From a virus (lineage: Duplodnaviria > Caudoviricetes): a DNA stretch of 64,000 bases. This document shows positions 2,257 to 51,222 of this stretch, piece by piece; position 1 is the stretch's first letter; each line of letters begins with the position of its first letter. Location of the stretch: positions 1 to 64,000 of IMG/VR virus record IMGVR_UViG_3300036783_000170; one strand, 5' to 3'. Made by a program: the position numbers and the translations under genes. The notes below the pieces were generated by a model that saw nothing but the letters and a program-made list of their open reading frames with translations, had not been told where the DNA came from and searched no databases.

Positions 2257-4628
2257 GTGACCCAGTGGCGGTACCGCGACTTCGAGGCCCTCGTGTACGG
2301 GGCTGAGGGAGAGCCTGTGGGCCGCGTGCCCATCCCCGGGTGTCTCTCGCCCCACCACTGCGTCGAGGCCGTCCAGTACGCCCTGGGCCTGCTCTCGGAG
2401 GACTACCCCCGCGAGCGCCTGTACGCCGAGGTGCGCTGGGTGGACTACCCGGACCGCGAGCCCGTCAGGGTGGACCTGCCAGATCAGTAGACGCTCCAAG
2501 GATCCTTATGGTATCCTGGAGTCTCACCCGCCGGAGACACAGGGAGCAAGCCATGGACATCGAGTCGATCGAGCAGCCCGAGGTCTCCGGCCACCACGTC
2601 ACCAGTGACGCCCTGATCTTCTGCCCAGTCGCCCAAGACTTCGGGCGACCACGGACCGACCCGTGGGATGGCGCGACCTGCGTCAACTGCGGCGAGGTAG
2701 TGGCCCCGCTCATCGAGTGGCTGGCCGACCAGACATGAGCACGTCGAGTATCGAGGAGCAAGTCATGAGCCGGAGCCGTAAGACCTACCGCGTCACCGTC
2801 AAGAGCGCAGACGGTCAGTCATTCACCACCGCCGAGCGTGTCAGTCAGGTCGCCGCCTACAACGAGGTGTACGCCCCAGTGAACGTCCAGCACGGCGCCT
2901 CCGCCGAGGTCTGGGAGGACGCGGGCGACGGCTGTGGGTACCGCCTCTTCGAGCGCATCGAGTACTGAGGAGCGCGCCATGATCAAGCTATCCGCACCAC
3001 AGGCCCGAGCCCTGCGAGCCGCCTACGACGGCGCGCTCGTCCAGCTGTACATCGGCGACGTGATCCTCTTGACCCTCGGTAGGCACGGCTCGGTCATCGA
3101 GAGCCGCGTACCTCGCTCGACCGTCGAGTCGTTGCTCGAGCAGGGGCTGGTCGAGCGCACCGAGACCCCGTCCCCGAGGTACGCGGGCACCATGATCTAC
3201 GCGACGCGAGCCGGCGGGGCCCGGCTCGGGGAAGCCGGCTACTGACATGAGCCAGCGAGTGCGCAACCTGAGCACCGGCGAGGTCGGCACCGTCGTGCGC
3301 GGCCCGTACACCAAGTACCGCGCCGAGTGGTTCGACGTGGTGTTCCCCAACCCGGAGACCGGGACCGGTGGACGCTACAGCCGCCGCGTCGAGGCCCGCA
3401 ACGTAGAGCCCGTAGAGGAGGGCTGATGACCAAGATCTACCTCGCCGTCCACGATGCGGACGACGGGATGAGCCCCTGTCACGCGTTCACTCGTCGGGAG
3501 GACGCGGAGGCGTACGAGGACGCCAACGACGTGCTGGTGTTCGAGCTGCACGACGCGCCGGTGGAGAAGCGGGACTGGTACGTGATGACCAGTACCACCT
3601 ACTACGACGAGCCCTGGTCCTGGCGCAAGGACTACCTCGGCGACCCCGACGCGTTGGAGTCCAGGTTGGAGTCGCACCGTCTGTACCCGGTCCGACTGGT
3701 CGTTGAGGGCTGGGACCGCGACCAGGTCATCCAGACCTACCTAAAGCTGGCGGCCGAGCACGGCCTGCCCGGCGGATACCCAGCGGAGGGCTGAGGTGTC
3801 CAAGCTGAGTCGGCTAGAGGACGAGATCGAGTCACTACAGGGCACGTACGACGACACATACGACTACCTGAATAAGTTGGTGAACACCGTCATCCGCGAG
3901 CACGACGAGCACCATCCTGAGGCGTTGACTTGGTGCCAGCACGAGTCCTGCCAGCTCGCCCGTGACCTGTGTGATTACCGAGGAGGCTACTGATGGAGAT
4001 CCACGAGCAGCCGGTCCGGTACGCCGTCTCCGCCGTGCCGCTGGAGTGGCTGGGCAGCCGTCACTTCACCGTCCACGTCCAGTGCCTGCGCTCCAACGAG
4101 TGGGTCGTGGAGCGCTACGGCGAGTTCCTCACACCCGCCGGCCAGTGGACCTTCGTCACCGCCGAGCGCGGGAAGTTCGAGCTGGAGGAGGCCCTGGAGA
4201 TGGCCCGCGAGGCCGCCCCGCACCTGACCGTCAACGAGTACACCGTCGCCGACGCCCTGACCAAGGGGTCGGAGTGGTACTGAGGAGATCATAAGATGTC
4301 AGTCGAGGGACGCGACTACCACTACGGCCCGCACCCTGCGGGCGGCCCGACCAAGCACGAGGGGTCGCGGGCGGCGTGCTTCTACCCCGACTGCGACCTG
4401 ACCCACCGCGAGGTCTCCGAGCACGTCCGTCGGTACCTGCGTGAGCACCACGCCCTCTCGATCGTGTCGGTCGTCCACACCGGCTGGCACAACGGCTCCC
4501 GGCGCACGGTCATCTACCCCCGCTGGGAGCGCGCGAGAGAGCTGGAGGCCCTCGTACAAGACGGCTCGCTTAAGGACCTGTCCCGGGTCGTGGAGTGGGA
4601 GGACGGCCACGTGGTCGTGTGGCACTGA
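2257..4628 (+). CDS. cluster of small hypothetical proteins (2257-2490, 2553-2738, ~2765-2968, 2979-3245, 3247-3426, 3426-3794, 3796-3993, 3993-4283, 4296-4628)
   Basis: Head-to-tail, often translationally coupled ORFs with phage-like codon usage; no recognisable families. Confidence 0.6.
2488..2538 (+). promoter_or_regulatory. repeated promoter/operator unit
   Basis: TAGACG-N18-TATCCT, AAGGATCCTT 2498-2507, GCCGGAGAC 2530-2538. Confidence 0.75.
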
Positions 4629-4660
4629 TGGCCCATCGATCCCTACCCGAGGAGAAGCAC

Positions 4661-5203
4661 GTGCACCGACTGACCGCGTCCATCTCGCTGATCTCGCTGT
4701 CGGCCCTCGCGCTGGCCGCGTGCGGATACGTGAGCCCGCCCGGGCCGTCGACGGGTACGACGGCTACCCCGCGCCCGTCCGTGGCCCCCACGGCCGGCTG
4801 CCGGGTCCGTGGCGTGCTGCCCGACCCCGCTTGCACTCCCGGGGCGGCGAACCCCGCCGTCACGCAGGCGAACGTGCACCAGACGATCTGCGTCAAGGGC
4901 TGGACCGCGACGGTCCGGCCGCCGGTCAGCTACACGGCGCCGCTAAAGGTCAGGTCGATCCGCGCGTACGGGTACGTGGACACCGACCCCAGGCACTACG
5001 AGTTCGACCACCTGATCCCGCTGGAGGTGGGCGGCGACCCCACAGCCCCGGCGAACCTGTGGGCCGAGCCCACGCCGACCCCGAACCCCAAGGACAGGGT
5101 CGAGGGCGCGCTGCGGCAGAGGGTGTGCTCGGGGCGCACGACACTGCGCGCCGCCCAGGCGGCGATCGCCATCGACTGGACGACGGCGCTCAGCAAGACG
5201 TAG
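4661..5203 (+). CDS. lipoprotein with HNH-like (His-Me finger) domain
   Basis: Hydrophobic signal ending in lipobox LAAC, Pro/Thr linker, motif YEFDHLIPLEVGG...NLW.EP...NPKD.VE; RBS AGGAG before GTG 4661. Confidence 0.7.
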   Translation: MHRLTASISLISLSALALAACGYVSPPGPSTGTTATPRPSVAPTAGCRVRGVLPDPACTPGAANPAVTQANVHQTICVKGWTATVRPPVSYTAPLKVRSIRAYGYVDTDPRHYEFDHLIPLEVGGDPTAPANLWAEPTPTPNPKDRVEGALRQRVCSGRTTLRAAQAAIAIDWTTALSKT

Positions 5204-5214
5204 CGCTCGGGGCC

Positions 5215-5261
5215 TAGATCCTATAAGGATCCTTATGCTACACTGACGGGGCCAGGGAGAG
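5215..5261 (+). promoter_or_regulatory. repeated promoter/operator unit
   Basis: TAGATC-N18-TACACT, TAAGGATCCTTA 5224-5235, GCCAGGGAGAG 5251-5261. Confidence 0.75.
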
Positions 5262-5285
5262 CATCAGACGATCTGAGGAGCGCGC

Positions 5286-8200
5286 ATGGCCGCTATCACC
5301 ATCAAGGCGCCGGGCAGGTGCTCGGTCCGCTACTACTGCGAGCGCCTGCACACCCCCGACTCGGGCGTCCTCCACGACTCCGGCGTCCGCACCCCGCAAC
5401 GCGCCAGGTGCCGGTACTGCGGCGGGGCCTTCGTCGTGGAGCGCGGCCACTGGGGCGTCTTCTCGCGCGGCGTCGACCACCGGAGGGACGCGGCGCTGTT
5501 CCTGCACCCCCGCCAGGTGATCGCCGAGCGCATGATCGCCGAGACCGGCCGCGACGACCTGGTGGCCCGCTGGGTCGAGGCCGAGGACGCGTGATGGACG
5601 ACTACTACTCGCCGACCGAGGCCCAGCTCGCCAAAGACTGGGCCGAGCGCCGCGTCGACTTCGGCGGCTACAAGCACTACGAGTTCTTCGAGCCCCGCCA
5701 CATAGACTTCGGCCGCAAGCTCCCCTCGCGTCCGGAGCCCGCTGGCGACCAGTGCCGGTGCCCGTCCTGCCAGACCCAGGGGTGGCTCGCCCAGTCGCCG
5801 TGCTGCCGGCTCTGGCGCGCCTGCTGCAGTGAGTGCGGCGGCACCCGGGTCGTGGTCGAGCACCTCGCCCCCGGCCGCTGGCGGAACGTCCCGTGCGACC
5901 TGTGCCAGGAGGAGTGGACACAGGCGGTGCGGTTCTTCCGCGACGCACTGCGTAGCCCCCGCCTGACCGCCGAGAGGCTGCGGGACGGCTCGTACGGCAG
6001 CTGATGCTATGTCTCTAAGGATCCTTGTGATACCATGGAGGCTCACCGCCAGGGACGAGAGGTCGGACGAGATGAAGAGCATCAAGGGCATCCCGCGCCA
6101 GTACCGTTGCCAGCTCTGTGGCCGCAAGGGGGCCTCGGGGTTCACCTACAGCATCAGGCTCGGAGCGCACACCTGCAAGGCGTCGAGGGCGTGCTCCCTC
6201 CGCCAGGCAGCGAAGTGAGCTGAGATGGCACGCAAGAAGATCGACCTGGACATGCTCGCCAACGACGTGGCCGACATGATGGACCGCTTTGGCTACCTCG
6301 ACGACCTGCCCAAGGTGTCCGAGGAGGACATCCGACCACTGCTGGACGGCTTCGTAGCCCAGCTCCGGGAGGCCAACGCGCGCAAACTCGTCGTGATCGA
6401 GGAGGCGGGATGAGCCTCCGCCCGCACCCAGGCAACGCGGACCAGCGAGCGAGCCGCGAGGAGCGCAAGGACAACGCGTGGTTCGTCCTGTGCGACGGCA
6501 CGGACTGCCAGACGAGCCTGGAGGTCAAGGTCCGGATCCCGGTGCTGGCCTTCTACGAGGCCACCTTACACAACGGCTGGCGGCCGGGAGCCAGGTCCAA
6601 GCCGGGCGTGTACTGCCCCGCCTGCGTCGAGGTCGGGGTGGACCAGCCATGAGCAAGTCACTGCAGCGCGCGCGGTTCGCCACCGGGCTCGTCGCGTCCG
6701 TCGTGCTCGCCTGGGTGGTCCTGGGCGGCTTCCAGGCGACGTGGGGGCTCTCCCACCTGTTCTGCCAGGTCGCGCTCGGCGCGGGGGCGCTCAGCCTCGC
6801 GGCGTGGGGCGCGCTGTACCTGGTGGCCCGACTCATGCACGAGGAGGACTGATGTCGATCCTTCACCTATCGTACGTATCTTGTGACAGTTGCGGTCGAG
6901 TGTCCGAGTGGGCCGAACACCACCAGGAGGCCCGCGCCGAGGCCGCGCACGACGGTGGCGTCTACGTCGAGGTCGCCTCCCTCGTCGACTCCTTCCATCC
7001 ACTGAAGTCCAGATCGGGATCACGCGAGGTCACGCCGAAGATGGTCGACCTCTGCCGGAAGTGCTGGCTCGGACTGAGGAAGCCAGAGAGATCACAAGAT
7101 CTGGAGGGTCAGGCATGATGCCGAGCGCCGACGGCGCCATCTGGTGCTGCAAGCCCAGCGTGTACCGGCTCCGCGCCGGCCACTGGGTCACCGACTCGAT
7201 GGGCGGCACCGCCGCGCACCCCACGCTGGGGATGCAGCACCGGCAGGCGTTCGAGAGCTGGGACGCCGCGATGTCGCAGGCGCTGGACATCGCCGCCGAC
7301 CGGCACGAGCAGAACCAGGCCGCGCTCACCTACTACCTCCGCCAGTACGAGTACGCGCTAGCTCTACACCCGCTGGACCTAGGCGAGCCAGAGGGCGAGC
7401 GGGGCGGACGCGAAGGCGAGCACCACGCTCCCCCAGAACATGGCGCCCGCGAGCCATCCGCCTACCGCGAAGGCCAGCACTACTAGCCCCACCACGGCGG
7501 CTGCGGAGACGAGGCCGGCTAGCGCGTACGTGAGCACCAGCGACCAGGCGCTCGGGAACTTCTCTTCATCGGCGATATCCACCCAGTAACCCATGAGTCA
7601 CAGTATAGGAGACAGCATGAGCGACAGCCCCGATCGACCGCTGGTCGTCCAGTCGGTCGACCTGGAGTCGGTGCGCCGGCTCGTCGGCACCGAGCTGAAG
7701 AACGCGCCGGGCGCCACCATCGTGGACGCGGAGCTGGACGACGACGGCGTGACCATCACCGTCGAGGTCCCCGACGCGGCTTGGCGACGACTCGGCTTGA
7801 GCGGCAGGGCGTCGGGGATCTCGATCCAGCACGCACCTCGCGATCAGGTCCCCTACCGCGCGGACTACGAGTCCCCGTGGTCGGCGGCTCTCTGGCCGGA
7901 CCCGGCTCATGAGTAGGGACCTGGATCGCGCCGACGACGGCCGCAGGGACTCGCCGGTGCAGGCGTGGGACGAGAAGTACCCGGACGGCTGCATCGTGAG
8001 TAGCGACCTCCTCGGACCCAGGTGGCCGCAGGAGGGGCTCTACCAGCGCCAGCTGGACACGTGGGTGCCGGTGGCGCGGGATGAGCAGGGGCTCTGGCCG
8101 TGCGTGCGCTGCGGGGTCGGGTCCTGGTGGTGCATACGACGCCAACCACGCGCCTGCTGCACATACTGCGTACGTGGGTCCACCCACCAGGACGAGGCGT

Positions 8201-31170: not shown

Positions 31171-31917
31171 GTGGGTCGCTTGCGTCATGACGCGGCACGA
31201 CCGAAGAAGCTGGTCGCCGAGGACCAGGAGTCCACGGCGGCGGAGCCGATGAGAGGCAGCCAGCCGTCCGTGCGCCGCAACCCCTCCACAGATCAGAAGA
31301 AGACGCGCCGGCAGATGCAGCGATCCCAGCAGAGGACCGCCATCAGCGTCTGCGCGGCCTGTCAGGCGTCGTCAGCCGGACCCTGCCAGTCATGCGGCTG
31401 CACCCTCGTCACGAGGGCGACCGTGCTCCCTACCAACGCGGAGCGACTGCAGTCGGGCCACGTCCTGCGGCTGCCGTCCGGCCAACGGGTCAAGGTCAAG
31501 GGCGTCAGGCCGCACGAGAACAGCGGCGGCCACCTGTACCTGGACACCGACATAGGCACCAGCGTGGTGGACCGCAAGGCCCAGTTCCACGTCATGCAGG
31601 GCGACGCCGCCGAGCGCGGCGCCCCGTTCAAGCAGCCGACCAACCGCGAGACCCCCGGCAACTTCAACACCAACCTGGCCGAGTCCACGGAGAAGCCCGA
31701 GGCCGCCCCGGCGGCCGGCAAGTGCCCCAACTGCGGCAAGGGTCCGCTGGTCAACCACGGGGGCAAGATGGTGTGCCGGAACTGCGGCTACACCAGCTCC
31801 GGCGGCGACTCCGACTTCGGCGACGCAGGGTACCGACGCCCCACCGCCTTCCTGCACGACGGCATGACGGCCGTAGCCCGGCGAGCCCAGACGCTCGTGG
31901 AGAGGACAGAACAGTGA
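31171..31917 (+). CDS. head-module protein with Zn-ribbon motifs
   Basis: CAAC...CQSCGC and CPNCG...CRNCGY; first gene after the late-type promoter. Confidence 0.65.
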   Translation: MGRLRHDAARPKKLVAEDQESTAAEPMRGSQPSVRRNPSTDQKKTRRQMQRSQQRTAISVCAACQASSAGPCQSCGCTLVTRATVLPTNAERLQSGHVLRLPSGQRVKVKGVRPHENSGGHLYLDTDIGTSVVDRKAQFHVMQGDAAERGAPFKQPTNRETPGNFNTNLAESTEKPEAAPAAGKCPNCGKGPLVNHGGKMVCRNCGYTSSGGDSDFGDAGYRRPTAFLHDGMTAVARRAQTLVERTEQ

Positions 31918-34280
31918 CCACCCGAGCAGACATCTTGCGGTCCATCAACGCGGCCCGCTCCGGCGAGGAGCAGCGGCTAGCGGTGCTCGCCCTGGACGCC
32001 TACGACCGGCAGGTCGTCGCGCGCCAGCGGTCCGACCGAGAGCTGGACCTGACCAACCGCGTCGTCCAGGACCGGATGGTCGCGGTCGCCACGCACGAGC
32101 GGTCCACCATCCAGACCGACTGGCTCGGCGACGTGACCGCCTCGGCCGGACCGGACGCCGAGCAGAAGGTGATGGCCGAGGCCGCCCTCTGGTACCGGGG
32201 CACGCCGGAGATGGTGCGCCAGGACGCCGAGGAGTTCACCATCCAGGCGCAGGGCAAGGCCCGGCGCGTCGCCAGCGCGTACGGCGAGTCGGCCGAGGCG
32301 CTGGAGCGGTCGTTCCTGAACTACGTCGCGTTCCTGAGCCGGCAGGCAGCCAGCGGGCTGGACCAGGTCCAGCAGCTGGTGGACTCGCACGAGGACCCGA
32401 AGCGGACCCCGCTGCCGACCGAGGTCTTCGACACCTTCCAGCCCGAGGTCGACCCGGTCAACGCGGGCGTCACCGGCACCGAGACCTCCGAGCGCGCCCC
32501 GCTGATGCAGGAGATCATGCAGGGCGACGCGTACGGCGAGGGACCGGAGAAGCCGGGAGGGCACTCCACCAGCTTCGACGGCTCCGGCGGATACTCCGAG
32601 GTGCCCGCCGACGCCGCCGACGCGCACCGGACGGCGGCGGTCAACCAGCTGCTCACCCTCGATGACTACCGGCTGCAGTTCGCCGCCGAGGCCCGGAGGG
32701 CGGACCCAAAAGAAGGTAGCTCCCACGAGGGGCGCATCGACCACGAGACCAGCAGCGACGGGCCCCGGATCCCGAGCCTGCCCGGCGCCCCGTCGGACTC
32801 GAAGGCCCGCGAGTACCAGGACGAGTTCGAGGAGAACACGAAGAGGCTGCGGGACGAGTTCGAGGAGAACGAGCGCTCGCGCAAGCAGGGCGCGTCCGGG
32901 CTGGACGAGGTCCAGCAGGTCGTGAACCCGCACGAGGACCCCGCCCCGACGCCGATGCCGACGGACGTGGCCTTCCCGTGGGTGGACGGGCAGGACGAGT
33001 ACGAGCAGGACCACCCCGGCCAGAAGGCCGCCGTGGCCCGGCACCGGCTGGTGGCCTCGATCCTGAGCAAGGAGCCGGCCTCCGTCACTCGTGCTGAGCT
33101 GCGGGAAGTGCTCTCGTTCGCCAAGGACGTGCGCGGCGGCGAGTACGCCAGCACGATGGCGGCGAAGCTGGCCAGCGCCGACACCGGCCCGAGCACCTGG
33201 CACCAGGCCGTCTACCACCTCGGGGTGGCTGATCCTGAGGTCGCGCGTACTGCAGTCAAGAAGACCGCAGACCAGTGGACCGCGCCGCACGAGGTCCCCG
33301 GCGGCCAGGTCGCCAACTCGCCGGCCACCACGCCGGAGTCGTCGAAGGGCACGTACGCGGACGGGTACGCGGAGGGCGGCGAGGACGCCAGGTCCGGCGA
33401 GGCCCCCACCTTCGCGGACGCGTCCAGCCACGCTCCGGAGTTCGTCCAGGGCCACACCAAGGGCTACCAGGACGCCAAGCAGACCGTCGAGAAGGGCCTG
33501 CCCAAGGACGAGCCGGCCTCGATGGGCGGCCAGGCCGCGCAGACCCCCGGCGCCGACGCCACCAGTAACCCGTACGCCGACCCCGGCGGCCGGTCGTACG
33601 CGAGGAAGATCTCCAGCCTCGTCAGCACCACGGCGGCCCGGCAGGACGCGGACTTCCTCAAGGGCATGCGGTACGCCCAGAAGTGGCGCCCAGGGCGTCC
33701 GCTGGTGACGCAGGGCTCCGCCGAGTTCGAGGGCGGCCTGTACGCGGGCATCAGCGACAACGCCGACAACCAGTACGCCTGGGTCGCGGAGCACCAGCGG
33801 CTCGCCCGGCGGGACCAGCGGTTCGCGGACCGGATCAGTCGGCACGCGGAGTACAGCGAGACGGTGGCTACCGACCTGCGGGCCATGGTCGTCGGGCCGT
33901 ACCTGCGGCTGGAGGCGGCCACGTCCACCGACCTGGACACCACGGCGCCGAACACCAGCCCCAGCCCGGTCGGGGACACCCCGATCAACGGGCCCGGCAA
34001 GGTCCCCCCGCTGGCTGGCCAGGAGGACCCGGCCGCCGCTGGTGGACCTGCGCCATATAATTCAGCTCCTCCCTACGGCAAACCTGTGGTTCCGCAGGGA
34101 GAGATGGCTGCCGGTACAGGGTCAAATACGACCATCAATACCACCATAGGTGGTCCGATGGATCAGGCCGCTGAAGAACGTCGACGCATGCGCCCTACCA
34201 CCTTGGCCTTTAGGCATCGAGTACAAGCGTCTCTGGTGCAGGACCGTCAGGAGAGGGTGAATGCCAGCTCTCGCCCTTGA
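31914..34280 (+). CDS. large acidic head-associated protein (788 aa) with internal repeat and slippery site
   Basis: GTG 31914 coupled to the upstream stop; duplicated ASGLDxVQQxVxxHEDP.xTPxPT motif; C-CCA-AAA at 32705. Confidence 0.75.
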   Translation: MTTRADILRSINAARSGEEQRLAVLALDAYDRQVVARQRSDRELDLTNRVVQDRMVAVATHERSTIQTDWLGDVTASAGPDAEQKVMAEAALWYRGTPEMVRQDAEEFTIQAQGKARRVASAYGESAEALERSFLNYVAFLSRQAASGLDQVQQLVDSHEDPKRTPLPTEVFDTFQPEVDPVNAGVTGTETSERAPLMQEIMQGDAYGEGPEKPGGHSTSFDGSGGYSEVPADAADAHRTAAVNQLLTLDDYRLQFAAEARRADPKEGSSHEGRIDHETSSDGPRIPSLPGAPSDSKAREYQDEFEENTKRLRDEFEENERSRKQGASGLDEVQQVVNPHEDPAPTPMPTDVAFPWVDGQDEYEQDHPGQKAAVARHRLVASILSKEPASVTRAELREVLSFAKDVRGGEYASTMAAKLASADTGPSTWHQAVYHLGVADPEVARTAVKKTADQWTAPHEVPGGQVANSPATTPESSKGTYADGYAEGGEDARSGEAPTFADASSHAPEFVQGHTKGYQDAKQTVEKGLPKDEPASMGGQAAQTPGADATSNPYADPGGRSYARKISSLVSTTAARQDADFLKGMRYAQKWRPGRPLVTQGSAEFEGGLYAGISDNADNQYAWVAEHQRLARRDQRFADRISRHAEYSETVATDLRAMVVGPYLRLEAATSTDLDTTAPNTSPSPVGDTPINGPGKVPPLAGQEDPAAAGGPAPYNSAPPYGKPVVPQGEMAAGTGSNTTINTTIGGPMDQAAEERRRMRPTTLAFRHRVQASLVQDRQERVNASSRP

Positions 34281-34764
34281 TCACTCGCGTCATTTGCGTG
34301 GGACTGATGCCGTACTCTCTGGCCAGTCCTCGATAGGTGCCCGTGCCTTCGATGAATCTCCTTCGGACTTCGTGAACCTGATCCCAGGTGAGGATGGCTC
34401 GGCCGTGGTCTTCGCCGCGACGCAGGTGTCCTCCGTCTCGCCCCCGCTCGACTCTGTCCCTGACGTTTTGAGCGTTGTTGCCGAGATAGAGGTGGGACAG
34501 ATTTACGCAAGGTCGGTTATCACACCGATGGAGAACGTGCTCTTCGTCAGTGATCGCTGGAGCAACCATGATGCGGTAGATCCAGCGATGGGCTCGTACG
34601 ACTCGGCGCCGGTTACGGCTATGAGGGTTAGGTGCCCCTCCATGAAACTGCCCGTACCCCTTGGCGTCGGTATGACTTGTCCAAGTCCAGCAGGCGTCTT
34701 CGCCTCTCGACTTGTCGACCTTGATCCAGAAGCGGGCGAGAAGATCTTCAACGGTTGCCTCCAT
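34210..34764 (-). CDS. free-standing HNH homing endonuclease
   Basis: RFWIKVDK...CWTWT...GYGQF...RAHRW.Y...VLHRCDNRPCVN..HL.LG..AQNVRD..ERGR, plus C-terminal HTH (LAREYGISPTQMTRVI). Confidence 0.9.
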   Translation of the reverse strand: MEATVEDLLARFWIKVDKSRGEDACWTWTSHTDAKGYGQFHGGAPNPHSRNRRRVVRAHRWIYRIMVAPAITDEEHVLHRCDNRPCVNLSHLYLGNNAQNVRDRVERGRDGGHLRRGEDHGRAILTWDQVHEVRRRFIEGTGTYRGLAREYGISPTQMTRVIKGESWHSPSPDGPAPETLVLDA

Positions 34765-34793: not shown

Positions 34794-35336
34794 ATGTCTG
34801 ATGAGCTGAACGACCTGATGTGGGTGGAGGCCACGCGAGACCTGGAGTCCGAGGCGAGCGAGATGTCCGCCGAGCGGGCCAGGATCGCCAGCTCCTCGCT
34901 GTGGCCGTTCCTGGCCGCCGCCCGCTCCGAGCCCGAGTTCGACGGCCGCCTCAGCGTCGCCGCCGAGCACCTTGAGGCCGTCGCCGTCGAGACCGGCCAC
35001 CCCGTCGAGGCGCTGGCCGCCGACCTGCGGGGGCAGTGGCGGCTGCTCGCGGAGGCTCGCGGCTCCGACCCGGTCGACCACGAGGGGCACGACTACGACC
35101 ACGACGACGAGGACCCCGAGGGCGACGAGGAGGACGCGCAGAACGGCGCCGAGTGGGACAAGCACATGGGCTACAGCCCGTACGACCACTACGCGTCGCT
35201 GCGCACCGCCTTGGAGGAGGGCGTCGACCCGCTCTCCTGGGTGGAGGACGAGGCGGAGTACGGCTCCGGAGCCGAGGAGGTAGGCGGCCACCAGAGCGGC
35301 GCCACCGCGTCCCGGGACGCCGACCCAAAAGCCTGA
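34794..35336 (+). CDS. head-associated protein, short form (180 aa)
   Basis: RBS GGGGGAGG; LWPFLAAARSEPEFDGRL motif; ends GAC CCA AAA GCC TGA. Confidence 0.75.
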   Translation: MSDELNDLMWVEATRDLESEASEMSAERARIASSSLWPFLAAARSEPEFDGRLSVAAEHLEAVAVETGHPVEALAADLRGQWRLLAEARGSDPVDHEGHDYDHDDEDPEGDEEDAQNGAEWDKHMGYSPYDHYASLRTALEEGVDPLSWVEDEAEYGSGAEEVGGHQSGATASRDADPKA

Positions 35337-36409
35337 GCCCCGTGCAGGGGCAGGGTCCGGTATCGGACACCAACGTCCCCCAGGACCCAGGCGGGTCCGG
35401 CGCGGGGATGGCCCCGATGCCCGACTCGGGCGTGCCTGGCGGGGGCGCCCCAAGCAGCGGCGGGGGCAGCGACTTCGACCCCGCGTCCCTCGCGGGCGCG
35501 AACGCCAACACGACCCCCGAGGGCACCCAGTCCGACATGACGGGCCGGATGCTCAACTCCGCCATGCTGGTGGCCGCCGCGAACCCCGAGCTGGACGACG
35601 AGGCGTGCGCGACCCTCGCGGTCCTGGCCGGCCGCCGGCTGGCCGCGAACCCGCTGGGGTACGGCCACCGTCCGTCCGTGGAGGGCCCGCTCACGCAGCG
35701 GGTCAAGAACCGGGTCAACGAGCTGGTCAGCGGCGAGTACCAGAGGCGACACCAGCCGCGCCCGCAGGGCCGCCCGAGCGGGCAGCCCGGCGCGGGCAAG
35801 GGCGTCCGCCCTACCCCGCGCCCGGCCCCGAGCGTGGGCGAGCAGCTGCTGAACCTCGTCCCCCTCAAGCCGCACGAGCGCAGGCTGGTGGACGGCATCC
35901 GGGGGCTCATCAAGAAGCACCGCGACCGGGCGGGCAACCCTCCTCCTCCGCACCACAACGCCCCTCCGGTACCGGCCCCGCCGTGGCTGGACGAGGACGA
36001 CCAGGAGGACGTCGACCGGCCCGACGAGCAGCCCCGGCCGGCCGCGCCTGGGGTGCTACCTCCGGGGGCTAGCCCCCACGACTTGAACGGTGACGACGAG
36101 GGCTCGTCCGAGGGCGAGTCCAGCGGCAGCAAGGCCGCCGTGCGGCACCAGGCCGACAACCCGCTGGACTTCGGCAACCGGGCGCCGGTGCCGGAGGGCC
36201 CGCTCGAGCAGAAGGCGGTCGACTCCATCAACGAGGCGGAGGACGCGGTCCCGATGCCCGGCGACACCTCGAAGGTACCGGGCATGGGGGGCGGCAAGGG
36301 CTCCGGAGGCAAGGCGCCGGAGGGCGCTGGTGCCGGCGCGGGCGAGGCGGCCGGCGGCGAGGCGGCCCTGGGCGAGGTGGGCGAGCTGGCCCCGATGATC
36401 GCGGTCTGA
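35330..36409 (+). CDS. -1 frame extension of the 34794 gene (or separate gene without a clear RBS)
   Basis: Open -1 frame begins at the slippery heptamer; Pro/Gly/acidic content like other head proteins. Confidence 0.6.
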   Translation, partial: SLSPVQGQGPVSDTNVPQDPGGSGAGMAPMPDSGVPGGGAPSSGGGSDFDPASLAGANANTTPEGTQSDMTGRMLNSAMLVAAANPELDDEACATLAVLAGRRLAANPLGYGHRPSVEGPLTQRVKNRVNELVSGEYQRRHQPRPQGRPSGQPGAGKGVRPTPRPAPSVGEQLLNLVPLKPHERRLVDGIRGLIKKHRDRAGNPPPPHHNAPPVPAPPWLDEDDQEDVDRPDEQPRPAAPGVLPPGASPHDLNGDDEGSSEGESSGSKAAVRHQADNPLDFGNRAPVPEGPLEQKAVDSINEAEDAVPMPGDTSKVPGMGGGKGSGGKAPEGAGAGAGEAAGGEAALGEVGELAPMIAV

Positions 36410-37234: not shown

Positions 37235-37418
37235 GTCCTCCGAGACATCCACTGGAGCAGTAGGGCGACCTCGACGTACTCGACGGCCCAGTCCTCGTCG
37301 TACCAGCGCTCGACCACGCGGCCTCCTGGTCTTAGGTCCTACGTCCAGTAGTCGACGTAGCCCCACGGCGGATGAGTGTGACCTGCCTCACCGTTTTAAA
37401 CGATCTGCCACTTACCTA

Positions 37419-37450
37419 CTGCCCGCCCGGTGCCGAGCCCGGCGTAATAG
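37419..37450 (+). promoter_or_regulatory. putative late promoter variant CTGCCC-N18-CGTAATAG
   Basis: Precedes RBS GGAGG and ATG 37465. Confidence 0.5.
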
Positions 37451-37464
37451 GCAGGAGGTGGGGC

Positions 37465-38752
37465 ATGCCGAAGTACCCCGTCAACGACCGTAAGTGCGAG
37501 GACTGCGGCGAGCGCGTCCCGCCGGGCACGCCACGCCGGACCTCGGACGGCCAGCTCGTGTGCTCGAAGTGCTTCACGCGCCGGTCCGCCATGACCCTCT
37601 ACCGCCAGGCGGCCGAGCAGTACCCGACCTCGGAGCCGGTGGCCCCCTCGCGCCCTGACTGGCGCCAGGATGCCGCCAGGGCCCGCACCGCCGCGCTCGT
37701 CAAGAGGGCGCACGATTCGGGCAATCAGGTAGATATCTACCACTGTCCGTTCTGCGGCAGCGGTCAGGTCGTGGGTAGATCTGACCGGACCGTCGAGTGC
37801 ACGTTCTGCAACGCCGTGTTCACCGTCCAGGTCCAGCCGATGTACTCCGGCGTCCCGCAGACCATCGACGGCGAGTCCGTCGAGGAGCCCGGCGCCCCGG
37901 GGATGGATGGCGAGCCAGACGTGGCCGGGGACGAGATGCTCCCCGAGGAGCAGGGCACCATGAACGGCCAGCTGCCCCCCGAGGAGGACGCGGACCAGGA
38001 CGGCGAGCCCGACGACGAGGAGGGCGACGACGAGCCCGCGTTCCTGAAGGGCTCGATGCTGCGGACCGCCAACGGCACCCCCGTGCCGATCCCCGACCTG
38101 ATCAACCACATGGCGCTGCTCCAGGCCACCGACGAGGAGCGGCCGGCGATCCTGGCCCGCATCCGCGAGGAGCGCGCACGATGACCCGGTACCGCGCGGC
38201 CGTAGACATGCGCCTGCCTGGCCAGTCCGTCAGCCGCGACGACGTGCTGGACATGGACACCTCGACCGCCATCGCCCGCAGGGACGTGGAGGGCATGGTC
38301 TCTCGCGGGCTCCTGGTGGCCGTGGAGGACGAGCAGGACCAGCCACCGGAGCAGGAGCCCGACTCAGCGGCCGAGGAGCGCATGTCGACTCCTCGGGGCC
38401 GCAAGAGGGGGCGCTGATGAGCGCGCCCCCGTCGATGCTCGCCCTCGTCCGCGACGGGAAGATCGACATCCCGTTCCTGTGCGTGGAGCGGGAGTGCGAG
38501 GGCAGCCGCTACCACACGCCGACGCCGCTGGAGGTCGCGCCGTACCTGTTCCACGTGGACGACATCGCCGCGTACTACGGCCCGTCCACGAGCGACGCGA
38601 CCTGGCTATGCGGCACCTGCGCGGCCAACCTCCGCGTCTTCTTCGGGCTGATGCGCGGCACCGACGGCAGCATGCCCTGGGAGGTCCAGCGGGAGTTCGG
38701 CAACGGCATCCGCCGGATCGGCAAGATGATGTGGAGGGCAGCTGATGCCTGA
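37465..38752 (+). CDS. three pre-portal genes (37465-38184 Zn-finger/acidic, 38181-38417, 38417-38752)
   Basis: CEDCG..C.KC and CPFCGSG...ECTFC motifs; coupled to the portal. Confidence 0.65.
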
Positions 38753-40979
38753 GCGCCGCAGGAGGAGGGTCGTACGCGCCCCCCAGGCGTCCCGACGCGC
38801 GTCGGTGGCGCAGCAGCAGGCCACCTTCGCCCAGCTCGCCTCGGCCGCCCGTAGGGGCGGCTCGCAGGCCGTGGAGGGGCAGGAGGCGGAGCTGGCCGAG
38901 ATGGCCAGGTCGCGCCGGCGTATCGCGGTGGCCTCGGGCGCCGGGTCGGCCCCGTACGGCGGGGGCGGCAGCGTCAGCTTCGCCACCGGGCGGCCCCGAG
39001 ACCCGTTCTTCTACTGGCGGCAGAACAACCTCTTCTACGACTTCGAGGACAACACCCAGCTGACTCGGGTGCGGCAGTTCTGCCACCTGCTGTACACGAG
39101 CCACTCGCTGATCGGGTCCTGCGTCGACATCTACACCGAGTACCCGCTGCTCGGGATGGAGCTGCGGTCGAAGGACGACAAGATCACGGACTTCTACTCA
39201 GATCTTTTTATGTCGCCGCGCCGGCTGAACTACCCGAAGTTCTTGGCCGACCTCGGCCGGTCGTACTGGCTGCTCGGCGAGGCGTGGCCGTTCGGCTCCT
39301 TTAACGAGAAGCTCGGCGTCTGGGAGGACGAGGAGCTTCTCAACCCGGACGACATCGACGTGGAGCGCTCCCCGTTCCAGCGGGAGCCGCGCTACCTGAT
39401 GCGGCTGCCCTCGACGCTGCGCGAGCTGCTGCAGAGCCGCTCCCCCGCGTACGAGTACCAGAAGCTGATCCAGGCGTACCCGGAGCTGGTTCGGTACCAG
39501 AACGAGGCGGAGATGATGCCCGTCAGCGGCATCCTGCTCCGGCAGCTGAAGTTCGACGGGCTGATGTTCAACAAGCGCGGCATCCCGCTGCTCAACCGGG
39601 CGCTGCGCCCGATCGTGCAGGAGGAGATGCTCAACTCGGCGATGGACGCGATCGCCGATCGGCTGTACGTGCCGCTGCTGATCGCCAAGCTCGGGGCGTC
39701 CGCCAACGACCTGGGCACCGAGGTACCGTGGATCCCCACCGAAGACGACATGGCCGCGTTCGAGGAGACCGCCGACGCCGCGCTGGCCGCCGACTTCCGG
39801 CTGCTGATCACCAACTTCGCCACCAGCGTGGAGTCCGTGTTCGGCCGGGAGCAGATGCCGGACCTGACCGCCGACTTCGAGCGCATCGAGGACAAGATCC
39901 TCCAGACGTTCGGGCTCTCTAAGACGATGCTCACCGGGGCGAGTTCAGGCGAGACGTACGCGGCGGACGCGCTCAACAGGGACCTCATCAGCCAGATGCT
40001 GACCCGGTACCAGCGGATGCTCTCCGACCACTACGAGGAGCGCGCGCTCGTGGTCGCCGAGGCGCAGGGGCACTTTGATTACGAGGAACGCGGCGGTAAG
40101 AAGTACGTCAAGATGGAAGAGATCCTCGAAGTGGACGAGGAGAGCGGCGAGGAACGAATCATCCAGCAGCCCAAGCTGCTCATCCCAGAGCTTCGCTTCA
40201 AGACGCTCAACCTGAAAGACGAGGAGGCCGAGCGGGCCTTCTACGAGCAGCTCCGCGAGGCCGGCGTCCCGATCTCCATGAAGACGCGGCTGATCAACGT
40301 GCCCATCGACCTCCAGGACGAGATGGAGATCAGCCAGGACGAGCAGGTCCAGCTCGCGGTGAAGGAGCAGGAGACGAGAAAGGCGATCTTCCTGGCGCTC
40401 CGTCAGAAGGGGCTGCCGATCCCAGCGGACCTGCTGGCGGACTTCAGTCCGCAGATCAACCCTCTCCCGCAGCCGGCGGACATGGCCAGCCGGGTGCCGA
40501 TGCTCGGTATCGACCCGCTGACCGACACCCCGAACCTCGCCCCGACCGGCGAGGACCTGGCCGCGCTGCCCACCGAGGGCACCGAGATCGCGGGCCAGCC
40601 CAGCCAGCCCGTGGAGCCGGTCGCGGTGATCGGCGGAGACGGCTCGATCACGCCGATGGGCGACCAGTCGCAGCGACCACCGGAGAGTGACGAGATGCGC
40701 GCCGACATGCCAAAGGCGGCGTCGATACTGAGCGAGGCCGCGCTGTGGCGGAACGCCAAGACGATGCGCCACGTGGTAGACGAGCAGCTCGGCAAGGTCT
40801 CGGACGAGATCGCTCGGCAGCGCGACATGCTGGTCACTGCGCAGGTGGTCCAGGGTCAGCACGAGGGCGACGAGACGCCGCCGTTGGACATGGAGCCCGC
40901 CGGACTCACAGGGCCGAGGCACGTTGGAATGCGTCGATACCTGGACATAGACGACACCGTACCAATGGAGGAGTGGTAG
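38745..40979 (+). CDS. portal protein (Bxz1/E3-like)
   Basis: 744 aa; IGSCVDIYTEYPLLGM, EAWPFGSFNE.LG.WE.EELLNPDD, RGIPLL.RA, DRLY.PLLIAKLG, REAGVPIS; position upstream of protease and capsid. Confidence 0.8.
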   Translation: MPERRRRRVVRAPQASRRASVAQQQATFAQLASAARRGGSQAVEGQEAELAEMARSRRRIAVASGAGSAPYGGGGSVSFATGRPRDPFFYWRQNNLFYDFEDNTQLTRVRQFCHLLYTSHSLIGSCVDIYTEYPLLGMELRSKDDKITDFYSDLFMSPRRLNYPKFLADLGRSYWLLGEAWPFGSFNEKLGVWEDEELLNPDDIDVERSPFQREPRYLMRLPSTLRELLQSRSPAYEYQKLIQAYPELVRYQNEAEMMPVSGILLRQLKFDGLMFNKRGIPLLNRALRPIVQEEMLNSAMDAIADRLYVPLLIAKLGASANDLGTEVPWIPTEDDMAAFEETADAALAADFRLLITNFATSVESVFGREQMPDLTADFERIEDKILQTFGLSKTMLTGASSGETYAADALNRDLISQMLTRYQRMLSDHYEERALVVAEAQGHFDYEERGGKKYVKMEEILEVDEESGEERIIQQPKLLIPELRFKTLNLKDEEAERAFYEQLREAGVPISMKTRLINVPIDLQDEMEISQDEQVQLAVKEQETRKAIFLALRQKGLPIPADLLADFSPQINPLPQPADMASRVPMLGIDPLTDTPNLAPTGEDLAALPTEGTEIAGQPSQPVEPVAVIGGDGSITPMGDQSQRPPESDEMRADMPKAASILSEAALWRNAKTMRHVVDEQLGKVSDEIARQRDMLVTAQVVQGQHEGDETPPLDMEPAGLTGPRHVGMRRYLDIDDTVPMEEW

Positions 40980-45036: not shown

Positions 45037-45066
45037 CTGCCGCCACGTATCCGAGCCCGAGGAATG
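45037..45066 (+). promoter_or_regulatory. putative late promoter CTGCCG-N18-GGAATG
   Basis: Directly upstream of the protease gene. Confidence 0.55.
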
Positions 45067-47298
45067 GGTAAGGACACGGAGGTGGGCGGGATGCTGCGTA
45101 AGTTCGCGACCGCGATGGTGCTCGATAAGTTCGTGGTGCCAGCGGACGCCGGGGCCGAGGCCATGCGGCGGATCGCGCACCGGCACGAGTTCCAGTACGA
45201 CGTGAGGCCGGGCTACCTCTATGTCCGTTCTCGTATGATTAGTTCCAGATGTAACGACAACTACGACGAGTTCCCCGCAGAAGAGATCAAGAAGGCGTAC
45301 CGGACCTTCGTCGGCAAGCCCGTCTTCGTCAACCACAACAACGAGGACCACCGGCGCGCCCGGGGCGTGATCATCGACGCCGCCCTGCACGACGACCGGA
45401 ACCCCGACGGCACCCCCGACCTGTGGGTCGAGGGGCTGATGGAGATCGACGCCGTCCGGTTCCCGATGCTGGCCAAGGCCATCGTCGCCGGCCACGTGGA
45501 CCGCACCTCGATGGGCACCGACGTGGCGTTCTCCGTCTGCTCGATCTGCAACAACAAGGCCACCACGCCGCTGGAGTACTGCCGGCACATCCCCGCGCAG
45601 AAGGGGCGCCGGATCTTCCGCGCCAACCCGAAGACCGGCAAGAGGGTCGGCGTGCTGGTCCGGGAGACCTGCTACGGGCTCTCATTCTTCGAGAACAGCC
45701 TGCTGGTCGAGCCCCCGGCGGACCCGACGGCGTTCTTCACGGGCGTCGACGCGCGCGGGCTGAGCGCCCACGCCGCCCGGCACCCGGAGGCGCCGAAGGG
45801 CAAGCCGACCCCTAAGCGTCAGACCCCCGCCGCGCGCCGGCAGGAGGGCGAGCGGCTCGCGTCCCTGCGCGCCGTCGTCGCCGAGGGCGAGGAGGCTGGG
45901 CCGCCGCCGAACCACCGGCCGCAGGGCGACCCCGTGGTCCGCGAGGAGGCCGCCTGCGCGACCTGCGGCGGCGCGATCTTCCACTCAAAGAACGGCGACG
46001 TGTGGATCCACTCCGAGCAGACCGGCGGCGGGATGCCGCACCAGGCCAACCCCGGCGAGGAGGGGTACGACGGCGCCAGCGGCCAGATGGTCCCGCAGAA
46101 CAAGGCGTACGAGAGCCACTCGACCAGCAAGGAGTCGCACCTCTCCGACGGCGCGCACAGCGAGAAGGAGATGGACGACTACAACCGTGGCCGCCGGGTG
46201 GACCTGGAGGACCCGATCGACCTCAAGAGCCACCTGATGGAGACCCACGGCTGGGCTCCGGAGGACTTCCACCAGCACGCCATGGACCGCCACCACCCGG
46301 CGCTCGGGGACACCGACGGCGCGAGCCGGCCGTACACCAGCACCGAGGTCCAGCACATCCACGCGTTCGAGCACACCCCGGCCGGCGGCGGCCACGACTT
46401 CCCGGACGCCCGGGTGGAGGACGGCATGCACAGGCACGCGTCGCTGGTGGCCGAGGCCAAGCCGAAGTACGAGGACCCGGGCGAGCACCCGGCGATGAAG
46501 GCGCTCGGCCTGCACCCCGGCAACGTCGTCGGCCACTGGGACATGGCCACCGACGAGGAGAAGGGCCAGGGCAAGAACTGGTACGAGGACGCCCACCACA
46601 TCGCCAAGGCGATCGCGGGCGGCGACGCGCACAAGGGCGCGGGGGTGCTGGCCGCGTACTCCCCGCAGACCGCGTGGCCGGCGAACATGTTCAACGCGTC
46701 CCGGTCGTTCCGGGAGGGCAAGGCGATCGGCGGCAAGGGCTCCGGCGTGATGGCTTCTGGCCAGATGCGCGACGCCGCGCAGCGGATCATGAACGGCGAG
46801 CGGCACGAGGACGTATTCAAGGGCAACAAGATCAGCGACTTCGCGCACCTGATCGAGCACGGCGGCAACAAGGACGACAACGACCCGAAGGTCGTCGTCG
46901 ACCGACACGCGCTGTCGGTGGCCGCTGGCCGTCGGCTCCCGGAGACCGAGACGGGCCCCGCGCAGGCTGCGATCGCGAACCGCCACTACTACCAGCACGC
47001 GGTGGACACCTACCACCAGGCCGCGAAGCACATCAACGAGCGCGACGGCCGCACGGGCGAGGACCAGGTGAAGCCGCACGAGGTGCAGGCCGTCACCTGG
47101 CTGGCCCGGCAGCGGATGAACCAGAAGGAGGACCGCGACTCCGGTACCGCGATGGGCAAGGGCCGCGCGAGCGGCTTCGAGAAGGCGCACCAGCAGTGGC
47201 TGGAGCATGCCCGGAACCACTACGACGGGTTGGAAGGCAACATGCACATGGCCCTGCTGCGCGCGCCCAAGGAGTCCCAAAGGCGCACAGGTGCCTAG
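45064..47298 (+). CDS. capsid maturation protease fused to His/Cys-rich linker and C-terminal enzyme-like domain
   Basis: N-term RSRMISSRCNDNYDEFP.EEI..AY.TFVGKPVFVNH.N...ARGVI.D...TSMGTDV..SVCSIC.N...ETCYGL.FFENS.LVEPPADPTA (prohead protease-like); start may be ATG 45091. Confidence 0.78.
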   Translation: MGKDTEVGGMLRKFATAMVLDKFVVPADAGAEAMRRIAHRHEFQYDVRPGYLYVRSRMISSRCNDNYDEFPAEEIKKAYRTFVGKPVFVNHNNEDHRRARGVIIDAALHDDRNPDGTPDLWVEGLMEIDAVRFPMLAKAIVAGHVDRTSMGTDVAFSVCSICNNKATTPLEYCRHIPAQKGRRIFRANPKTGKRVGVLVRETCYGLSFFENSLLVEPPADPTAFFTGVDARGLSAHAARHPEAPKGKPTPKRQTPAARRQEGERLASLRAVVAEGEEAGPPPNHRPQGDPVVREEAACATCGGAIFHSKNGDVWIHSEQTGGGMPHQANPGEEGYDGASGQMVPQNKAYESHSTSKESHLSDGAHSEKEMDDYNRGRRVDLEDPIDLKSHLMETHGWAPEDFHQHAMDRHHPALGDTDGASRPYTSTEVQHIHAFEHTPAGGGHDFPDARVEDGMHRHASLVAEAKPKYEDPGEHPAMKALGLHPGNVVGHWDMATDEEKGQGKNWYEDAHHIAKAIAGGDAHKGAGVLAAYSPQTAWPANMFNASRSFREGKAIGGKGSGVMASGQMRDAAQRIMNGERHEDVFKGNKISDFAHLIEHGGNKDDNDPKVVVDRHALSVAAGRRLPETETGPAQAAIANRHYYQHAVDTYHQAAKHINERDGRTGEDQVKPHEVQAVTWLARQRMNQKEDRDSGTAMGKGRASGFEKAHQQWLEHARNHYDGLEGNMHMALLRAPKESQRRTGA

Positions 47299-50241: not shown

Positions 50242-51222
50242 ATGAGCACTGCGCTCGCCCCCAGCGGCCTGTACGGCAAGGTCGCCATCAAGAGCGACGA
50301 CTACGTCGCCGCACTGGAGCGGAAGCGGGCCTCGGGCCCGCTGGACCACACCCAGAAGGTCCGTCGCCTGGCGATGGTCCTCTCCGACCAGGTCGACGGT
50401 ATCCGCCGGCTCGGCGTCGGCATGGTCGGCCCGATCCAGCTGAAGCTGCGCTACCAGGGCATCACCCGCAACGTGCTGGTCGAGGACCCGGTCACCCCGG
50501 GCACCCCGGTCCAGTACGACGTGTGGGACGACCTGGGCCAGGCGTACCTCATGTCCAGCACCGACGGCGAGGTCCGCGTGACCCCGTTCGAGGGCAAGCG
50601 CGTGGACGTGAACTTCTTCCGGATCGCCTCGCAGCCCACGATCCGCAAGGAGGACCTGTACTACCTCCGGATCAACGCGGTGGAGCAGGTCCAGGACGAG
50701 ACCAAGCAGTCGATCCTCAAGCAGGAGGACAACCGGCTGCTGCAGATCCTGCAGGCCGCGATCACCGACTACGCCAGCCGGCCGGACCACGTGGTCACCC
50801 CGAACCACACGATCACCGAGGCGTCGGGCTACCTGACCCCCGGCTCGCTGTACTCGGCGGTCGCGATGACGGACCTGCACGAGCTGCAGTCGGCGCGGAT
50901 CCTGATCAACCCGTTCGACTTCCGGGACATGTACCGCTGGGATATCAACCAGACCGGCTGGGCCTTCAAGGACCGGGTCGTCGCGGGTGAGACCATCACC
51001 AGCTTCGGCGAGTTCCAGATCCAGCGGTCGATCATCGTCCCGCAGAACAAGATCTTCTTGACCCCGGAGCCGAACTTCCTCGGTGTCTTCCCGGTCCTGT
51101 ACTCCCTGGACGTGGAGGAGAACCACCAGGTCGCCAGCTTCATGAAGGGCTGGGTCTTCGATGAGATGGTCAATATGACCGTTTTGAACCCCAGGGGCCT
51201 GGCAGTGATTAACAAGGTTTAG
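50242..51222 (+). CDS. major capsid protein (Bxz1/E3-like)
   Basis: 326 aa; LGVGMVGPIQLKLRYQGI.RNVL.ED, EGKR..V.FFRIAS.P.I.KEDLY.LR, GWVFDEMV.M.VLNPRG. Confidence 0.85.
   Translation: MSTALAPSGLYGKVAIKSDDYVAALERKRASGPLDHTQKVRRLAMVLSDQVDGIRRLGVGMVGPIQLKLRYQGITRNVLVEDPVTPGTPVQYDVWDDLGQAYLMSSTDGEVRVTPFEGKRVDVNFFRIASQPTIRKEDLYYLRINAVEQVQDETKQSILKQEDNRLLQILQAAITDYASRPDHVVTPNHTITEASGYLTPGSLYSAVAMTDLHELQSARILINPFDFRDMYRWDINQTGWAFKDRVVAGETITSFGEFQIQRSIIVPQNKIFLTPEPNFLGVFPVLYSLDVEENHQVASFMKGWVFDEMVNMTVLNPRGLAVINKV

Follow-up and report, generated by a model that had tools for sequence, protein, structure and literature searches.

A predicted programmed -1 ribosomal frameshift joins two reading frames upstream of the portal gene in a family of phage proteins

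Background

A conserved -1 ribosomal frameshift can set the ratio of a short to a long product in tailed phages, as in the λ G/GT pair, where the position of the shift is kept while the sequence diverges and some lineages use other arrangements. Lactobacillus phage A2 uses -1 frameshifting in its head gene (Garcia et al. 2004, as cited in PMC5009743). In A2 gp5A/gp5B, the shift near the 3' end of a gene of the morphogenesis region generates a short product and a C-terminally extended one. The A2 signal reportedly consists of a C CCA AAA heptamer and a downstream stem-loop. Tandem-slippage heptamers of the type X XXA AAR, again with a downstream stem-loop, are found in bacteria, in E. coli dnaX (tau/gamma) and in the orfAB genes of IS3/IS911, and in IS3-type signals a 0-frame stop codon lies just past the motif (PMC4066793). 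Here we describe a locus with features of each of these systems. It lies within the first 64 kb (64,000 nucleotides; hereafter the window) of a 74.5-kb IMG/VR virus record, IMGVR_UViG_3300036783_000170, which has a GC content of ~69% and a CheckV completeness of ~50%. In the window, a 180-aa open reading frame (ORF A) and a 359-codon segment in the -1 frame (ORF B) meet at a C CCA AAA heptamer, and they are probably a single gene that is decoded in two ways by a programmed -1 frameshift, a reading to which we give a probability of about 0.85.

The likeness to the described systems is partial. The recoded gene of A2 is the major capsid gene and its extension is an Ig-like decoration domain, whereas here the major head protein is encoded elsewhere (50242-51222), the 359-aa extension is mostly disordered, and the host is a high-GC actinobacterium; in addition, the family to which the window proteins belong alternates between two heptamers and in-frame fusions. 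The λ chaperone pair is flanked by the major tail and tape-measure genes, while the window pair lies upstream of the portal gene and has no similarity to chaperone families. The heptamer at 35324 would yield a fusion, like orfAB, and a second copy at 32705 would truncate, like dnaX. Unlike those signals, however, the heptamer here ends in A rather than G, an upstream Shine-Dalgarno (SD)-like stimulator is not clearly conserved at the 35324 site, and the proteins are unrelated. To our knowledge, few phage frameshifts are known outside the tail-chaperone genes, and the annotators of actinobacteriophages routinely model the tail-chaperone frameshift only. No description of this protein family or its frameshift signal was found in the part of the literature that was searchable.

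Results

The junction of ORF A and ORF B

ORF A (34794..35336, on the + strand, like the other features of the junction) starts at ATG 34794 behind a strong SD sequence (-11.2 kcal/mol), and its 180-aa, 0-frame product ends in ...SRDADPKA. The 3' end of the gene reads GAC CCA AAA GCC TGA. Within it, the heptamer C CCA AAA (35324..35330) is in X XXY YYZ register with the 0-frame codons CCA and AAA, so that Pro-Lys is read in either frame. The TGA stop codon (35334..35336) follows one sense codon past the heptamer. After a spacer of 6 nt comes a hairpin, GCCCC-GUGCA-GGGGC (35337..35351; arms at 35337-35341 and 35347-35351), which is the likely stimulator. A second hairpin, GTCCG-GTAT-CGGAC, is present in the window sequence at 35355..35368. 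ORF B, with 359 codons and a stop at 36407-36409, occupies 35330..36409; it begins with SLSPVQGQGPVSDTNVPQ and ends in ...AGAGEAAG..EVGELAPMIAV. The conceptual trans-frame product (34794-35330 plus ORF B) has 538 aa and the junction ...RDADPK/SLSPVQGQG.

This arrangement had been proposed in a first-pass annotation of the window made from the sequence alone, and its coordinates for ORF A, the heptamer, the hairpins and the -1 frame, as well as the sizes of 180 and 538 aa, are correct to the base. Its remark that CCA and AAA are atypical codons also holds: in ten confident genes of the window, CCA makes up 5.1% of the Pro codons and AAA 3.8% of the Lys codons, and the GC content of third codon positions is 93%. 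Five AAA codons were found, two of which belong to the two CCCAAAA sites of the window. Two copies of CCCAAAA were reached in 12 of 100 shuffles, so the number is not beyond chance; the significance of the heptamer comes instead from its conservation in relatives. Finally, the annotation had seen no obvious ribosome-binding site for the -1-frame ORF. Indeed, there is no distinct one upstream of GTG 35342 (-2.0 kcal/mol), and the SD score of ATG 35408 (-6.8) lies inside the ORF-internal background of this G-rich ORF (mean -4.8, standard deviation 3.1), while well-supported gene starts in the window score -8 to -12.7.

Conservation of the heptamer and the stop codon

An exhaustive HMMER search (expectation value E<=1e-3) gave 154 homologues of ORF A, and the relatives of ORF B, sought in a set of 5.8 billion proteins, were two: P0005 and P0006, with 69% and 54% identity. 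An alignment of nine sequences served for finding related loci; an alignment of 39 sequences was too diverse as a search query, and locus searches with single proteins as the query gave no match. A scan for the cassette pattern gave no match in viral contigs and one further lineage, L021, in metagenome contigs. Against 50,697 phage records, blastn and tblastn found no match for the region, ORF A or ORF B. With homologues as queries against the phage records, P0040 had no match, and the sole match of P0015 was a 58-aa stretch in Streptomyces phages.

Two contigs, L002 (=L003, L004) and L005, have the same gene order as the window and carry the string GACCCAAAAGCCTGAGCCCCGT[G/C]CAGGGGCAGGG unchanged; L002, L003 and L004 are three separate assemblies or runs that are identical at the junction. 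The wider cassette string, GACCCAAAAG[C/G]CTGAGCCC[C/T]-N5-[G/A]GGGC, is common to the window, L002, L005, L006, L008 and L021, across which the identity of ORF A goes down to 43%. Thus, L006 (52% identity) reads GAC CCA AAA GGC TGA, then GCCCU-GUGCA-AGGGC, and L008 (43% identity) reads TCC CCA AAA GCC TGA, then GCCCC-GAGCA-GGGGC. The heptamer C CCA AAA is identical in seven lineages, namely these six and L025, where C CCA AAA GCC TGA is followed by a different, 6-bp stem.

Other lineages have a different heptamer at the same place. L007 (40% identity) reads CGC CCT TTC GCG TAA at the homologous place, with a long stem-loop (-36 kcal/mol) 7 nt later, and L022, L023 and L024 have C CCT TTC with a stop directly after it. 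In all four of these lineages the stop comes 0-1 codon past the heptamer, and each has a stem-loop of its own 4-8 nt downstream. All 11 metagenomic lineages that were examined share this distance of 0-1 codon from heptamer to 0-frame stop. V_VV.A_AA.R and H_HH.U_UU.Y, into which C CCA AAA and C CCU UUC fall, are among the heptamer classes of highest efficiency in E. coli (Sharma et al. 2014, PMC4066793). Among 150 listed representatives of the family, each standing for a 50%-identity cluster, 22 end in P-F(x) and 6-7 in P-K(A/G), and several more have P-F 2-6 residues from the end. Every contig of the P-F- or P-K-ending proteins that could be fetched contained the matching heptamer.

The switch of coding frame

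When the window is aligned with L002, L005 and L006, the differences in ORF A are concentrated at third positions of frame 0 (against L002, 45 of 76). Starting at the heptamer and continuing through the body of ORF B, they cluster at the third positions of the -1 frame. This pattern extends to the 77 nt ahead of the first conserved ATG, where -1-frame third positions account for 7/10 differences in L002, 8/14 in L005 and 13/24 in L006.

Among the lineages compared, the stretch from the heptamer to the GPVSDTNVPQ motif contains no conserved start codon. L002, L021, L008 and L007 lack one at that place, and in L021 the whole of the open -1 frame up to the motif is free of start codons. The counterpart of GTG 35342 is GTC in L002, GTA in L021 and GAG in L008; conversely, the GTG at which the gene caller starts the ORF in L002 is GTA in the window.

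Single-chain homologues

Several of the homologues retrieved by ORF A alone bear ORF B motifs in the same chain. ORF B alone matches residues 216-351 of P0046 (E 4e-7 in a small database), and its counterpart in the single-ORF homologues P0046 and P0053 is the C-terminal half of each. The 538-aa conceptual fusion aligns end to end with P0046, P0053 and P0144. The aligned features comprise the N-terminal domain (N-domain), the acidic linker, the motif YASL..G.DPL.W, the segments VSDTNVPQDP, NP.L and PL.YG.R..GP.T..VK, and the tail AGAGEAAG...E.AELAPLLLL. Relative to the fused homologues, the frameshift cassette sits in an insertion of ~10 residues. The first-pass annotation had pointed to a conserved heptamer or an in-frame fusion as features to look for in homologues; the heptamer is kept in the seven lineages above, and the fusions exist as well.

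In eleven IMG/VR loci (L010-L020; phage genomes of ~150 kb), the N-domain is part of a single ORF of 416-876 aa. Five of these (L010, L011, L012, L015 and L016) have the same C-terminal tail, in which the -1 extensions of the window, L002, L021, L006 and L008 also end; that of L005 ends in a variant. As judged from these alignments, the fused chain appears to be the ancestral protein architecture. The N-domain tree is poorly resolved. Frameshift-type proteins cluster in it but need several state changes, its starred branches forcing at least five for the P-F type and at least two for the P-K type. The tree is an indication of repeated gain or loss of the frameshift state and is too weak for polarity.

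The downstream hairpins

The 5-bp helix of the first hairpin is 100% paired in 6/6 close lineages, and there is variation at two positions of its loop. The closing pair of L006 has changed from C-G to U-A through two substitutions, each of which is synonymous in the -1 frame, and the stem of this lineage reaches 10 bp. L002 and L005 have a lower helix on the far side of an internal loop. The second hairpin is mismatched in L002 and broken by an insertion in L005, and it is probably incidental. Thus, the first of the two hairpins that had been proposed is kept in relatives, while the second, though present in the window, is not conserved and is probably irrelevant.

A model for decoding and the alternatives to it

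When a ribosome translating ORF A arrives at C CCA AAA, its P site would hold tRNA-Pro paired to CCA and its A site tRNA-Lys paired to the rare AAA codon. The G-C hairpin 6 nt downstream would then stand at the mRNA entrance, and the pause may be prolonged by the 0-frame stop that lies one codon beyond. The majority of ribosomes would terminate, releasing the 180-aa product, a helical N-domain with an acidic linker. Some would re-pair both tRNAs one base back, on CCC AAA, and go on in the -1 frame. The resulting 538-aa product would bear the GPVSDTNVPQ segment, NPL-x-[FY]G repeats and a Gly/Ala-rich tail ending in ELAPMIAV. From this we infer slippage at some frequency, a hairpin that acts as its stimulator, and two products that differ in their roles within or close to the head/portal assembly module.

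The proposal of the first-pass annotation, that a -1 frameshift fuses the 180-aa ORF to the ORF downstream, is strongly supported by sequence comparison: the heptamer, the stop and the first hairpin are conserved in relatives, a different efficient heptamer occupies the same place in other lineages, the coding frame switches at the heptamer, no start codon is conserved, and single-ORF homologues match the fusion end to end. Several points weigh against it. The efficiencies of the heptamers were measured in E. coli rather than in an actinobacterial host. The core hairpin has only 5 bp; its covariation amounts to one compensatory pair, a level equalled or exceeded by 81 of 500 shuffles, and the fold z-scores are unremarkable for a GC-rich sequence. 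Since the covariation is thin and the z-scores are ordinary, the first hairpin is regarded as plausible and correctly placed, not as a proven structure. Moreover, ATG 35408 is conserved in the closest relatives, and so a separately initiated ORF B product could coexist with the fusion.

It is unlikely that ORF A and ORF B are two independent genes, the first ending at the TGA and the second starting at ATG 35408 or GTG 35342, with the heptamer as a by-product of a conserved D-P-K peptide motif. ATG 35408 is indeed kept in the window, L002, L005 and L021, gene callers made separate genes of the two ORFs, and the peptide R-x-A-D-P-K recurs at 32705. However, the 77 nt upstream of the ATG evolve as -1-frame coding sequence, GTG 35342 is not kept, L007, L008, L002 and L021 have no start before the conserved motif, and the SD scores do not exceed background. 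Independent initiation at either codon, the outcome that the first-pass annotation had set against its own proposal, is therefore contradicted by the evolution of the frame, by the non-conserved starts and by the background-level SD scores. Nor does a peptide motif explain why codons used at 5% and 4% are fixed in every lineage or why C CCU UUC, encoding Pro-Phe, has been swapped in, and the single-chain homologues also speak against two genes.

The same single-ORF homologues, together with the position of the split at an A run, could be taken to mean that a frameshift mutation or a homopolymer error in sequencing or assembly has divided one gene and that the true run has five (or three) A's. 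This is extremely improbable given that four A's, the stop and the hairpin recur, across different samples, in no fewer than seven lineages whose assemblies are independent and that the L002-type junction is identical in three separate runs. In addition, the 0-frame stop is always 0-1 codon past the heptamer in the metagenomic lineages, the P-F-type lineages have no homopolymer longer than 3, and the fused homologues lack the ~10 residues that the cassette inserts. A change of frame by transcriptional slippage on the RNA at the A4 run, or by termination at the TGA followed by reinitiation, instead of by tRNA re-pairing on the ribosome, is very unlikely. There is an A run at the junction, and a GTG lies 5 nt past the stop in the window. 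Yet productive slippage by RNA polymerase needs longer runs, usually of 7 or more, than the four A's found here, and the C CCU UUC lineages, which have no such run, make it impossible as the general mechanism. The restart GTG is not conserved past the stop. Furthermore, every lineage preserves the X XXY YYZ register, a constraint that only tandem tRNA slippage imposes.

Other candidate recoding sites

A second in-frame C CCA AAA is present in the 788-aa gene upstream (31914-34280), at 32705..32719 on the + strand if the -1-frame stop is included (TAG, 32717-32719, two codons later). Here, the 10-mer GACCCAAAAG is in frame at 32703-32712 and reads GAC CCA AAA G. The site is kept in L002, L005 and L006 and absent from L007; the distance to the -1 stop is 2 codons in three lineages and 11 in L006. 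A search for a conserved hairpin downstream of the site found none. The site is a candidate for a truncating, dnaX-like -1 frameshift that would give a product of ~268 aa. The idea that the 788-aa protein is a paralogue of ORF A was rejected, or at best is unproven (hhalign probability 14%). The gene is listed in the window as part of a 962-aa ORF, the first ~170 codons of which (31392-31913) are Arg/Pro-rich and look out-of-frame; the conserved protein starts at GTG 31914 (SD -8.2), as in relatives. In L024, the large gene upstream of the P-F-type member has an in-frame CCCTTTT (L024:985-991; D-A-D-P-F) with a -1 stop after 4 codons, a parallel to the R-A-D-P-K site at 32705.

A candidate is also found in a cultured phage, Rhodococcus phage E3 (HM114277; L026:2771-2840). 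Its gp68 (524 aa), whose N-domain has the same fold, ends CGC CCT TTC GTC CGT CGG CGG TGA, and gp69 is encoded in the -1 frame, open from two codons ahead of the heptamer. Past the heptamer, after 7 nt, comes an 8-bp stem, GGCGGUGA/UCACCGCC. The two are annotated as separate genes, and we regard gp68/gp69 as an unannotated frameshift candidate. Beyond them, at L026:2962-6726, E3 gp70 is annotated both as a two-piece pseudogene and as a "structural protein"; its start frame is open without a stop throughout 2962-6726, through gp71, and the gene model looks questionable.

Two further motifs were noted in the window. CCCAAAG at 47276 was rejected as a -1 site because it is out of X XXY YYZ register with the protease frame. 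TTTAAAC is in frame at 37395-37401, near the start of a zinc-ribbon gene (37372-38184), and the -1 frame is open there for 30 codons.

Genomic setting and protein features

The portal gene (38745-40979; phrog_2833) is 3.4 kb downstream of the pair and is followed by a protease gene (45064-47298) and the major head protein gene (50242-51222; phrog_2522, E 2.6e-100). The protease-fusion gene overlaps the next ORF (from ATG 47207) by 92 nt. The window portal is ~40% identical to the portals of E3, Finch, Stormageddon, Phrappuccino and cluster C mycobacteriophages, and in the first four of these the N-domain gene precedes the portal gene by 1-4 genes. Because an N-domain gene stands upstream of the portal gene, with the protease and major head protein genes after it, the gene is placed at the edge of the head/packaging module, and its inferred role follows from position alone.

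Between the 788-aa gene and ORF A, an HNH endonuclease gene (34210-34764, - strand; phrog_1872/59, E ~1e-22) is found. It is absent at this place in L002, L005 and L006 and is thus, by comparison with these contigs, a recent mobile insertion.

ORF A has a five-helix N-domain (residues 1-90), predicted by AlphaFold2 (AF2) from the 39-sequence alignment with a per-residue confidence (pLDDT) of >92; the remainder, with the acidic linker, is disordered. Searches of PHROGs, Pfam and NCBIfam with ORF A and ORF B gave nothing or low-complexity noise only, and in PHROG, Pfam and fold searches neither product resembled a known head protein, capsid family or chaperone family. The "head gene" label of the earlier annotation is thus right as to position upstream of the portal gene and is not borne out by any match to a known head protein; the setting outside the tail-chaperone context, which it had also claimed, agrees with this position and with the lack of a PHROG or Pfam chaperone match. 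For the N-domain, Foldseek against the PDB found nothing at E<=0.001, a PDB profile search found no match, a VIA wide search gave a best Z of 6.1, which is noise level for a helical bundle, and an Atlas search gave generic helical matches only. The leads from BFVD, with weak E but high probability, were Rhodococcus phage Finch gp12 and a protein of 524 aa, the length of E3 gp68. The E3 gp68 N-domain is joined by tblastn to Finch gp12, Gordonia phage Stormageddon gp8 and Mycobacterium phage Phrappuccino gp44. Between those phage proteins and the window family, hhalign is weak (E 4e-4 and 6e-3), and BLASTP finds no similarity of Finch gp12 or gp13 to the window proteins. With low confidence, we suggest that the product is an internal protein or one that acts in assembly, docked to another component by its C-terminal tail.

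Conclusions

The locus adds a new case, spread across a family, of a known recoding mechanism; the mechanism itself is not new. If the reading of one gene decoded by a -1 frameshift is correct, gene models have to be changed: two "hypothetical proteins" become one gene with two products. The signal is found in roughly a fifth of the 50%-identity clusters of this family of portal-proximal proteins, and its retention, as far as the lineages compared can tell, shows that the short and the long forms are both selected. The swaps between two efficient heptamers and in-frame fusion would constitute a natural experiment on the gain, exchange and loss of recoding signals, and E3 gp68/gp69 offers a direct testing ground for the prediction in a cultured phage.

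A more speculative and rather doubtful extension is that the truncating site at 32705 and the extending site at 35324 form paired switches by which large actinobacterial phages would fix the ratio of short to long forms of assembly or cargo proteins near the portal, in place of, or alongside, cleavage by a prohead protease. Both sites would then be built on R-x-A-D-P-K / C CCA AAA in disordered linkers, and the matching linkers of single-ORF relatives would carry an R/K-x-A motif. If this is true, CCCAAAA/CCCUUUC recoding would be a general, repeatedly evolved expression device of this phage group.

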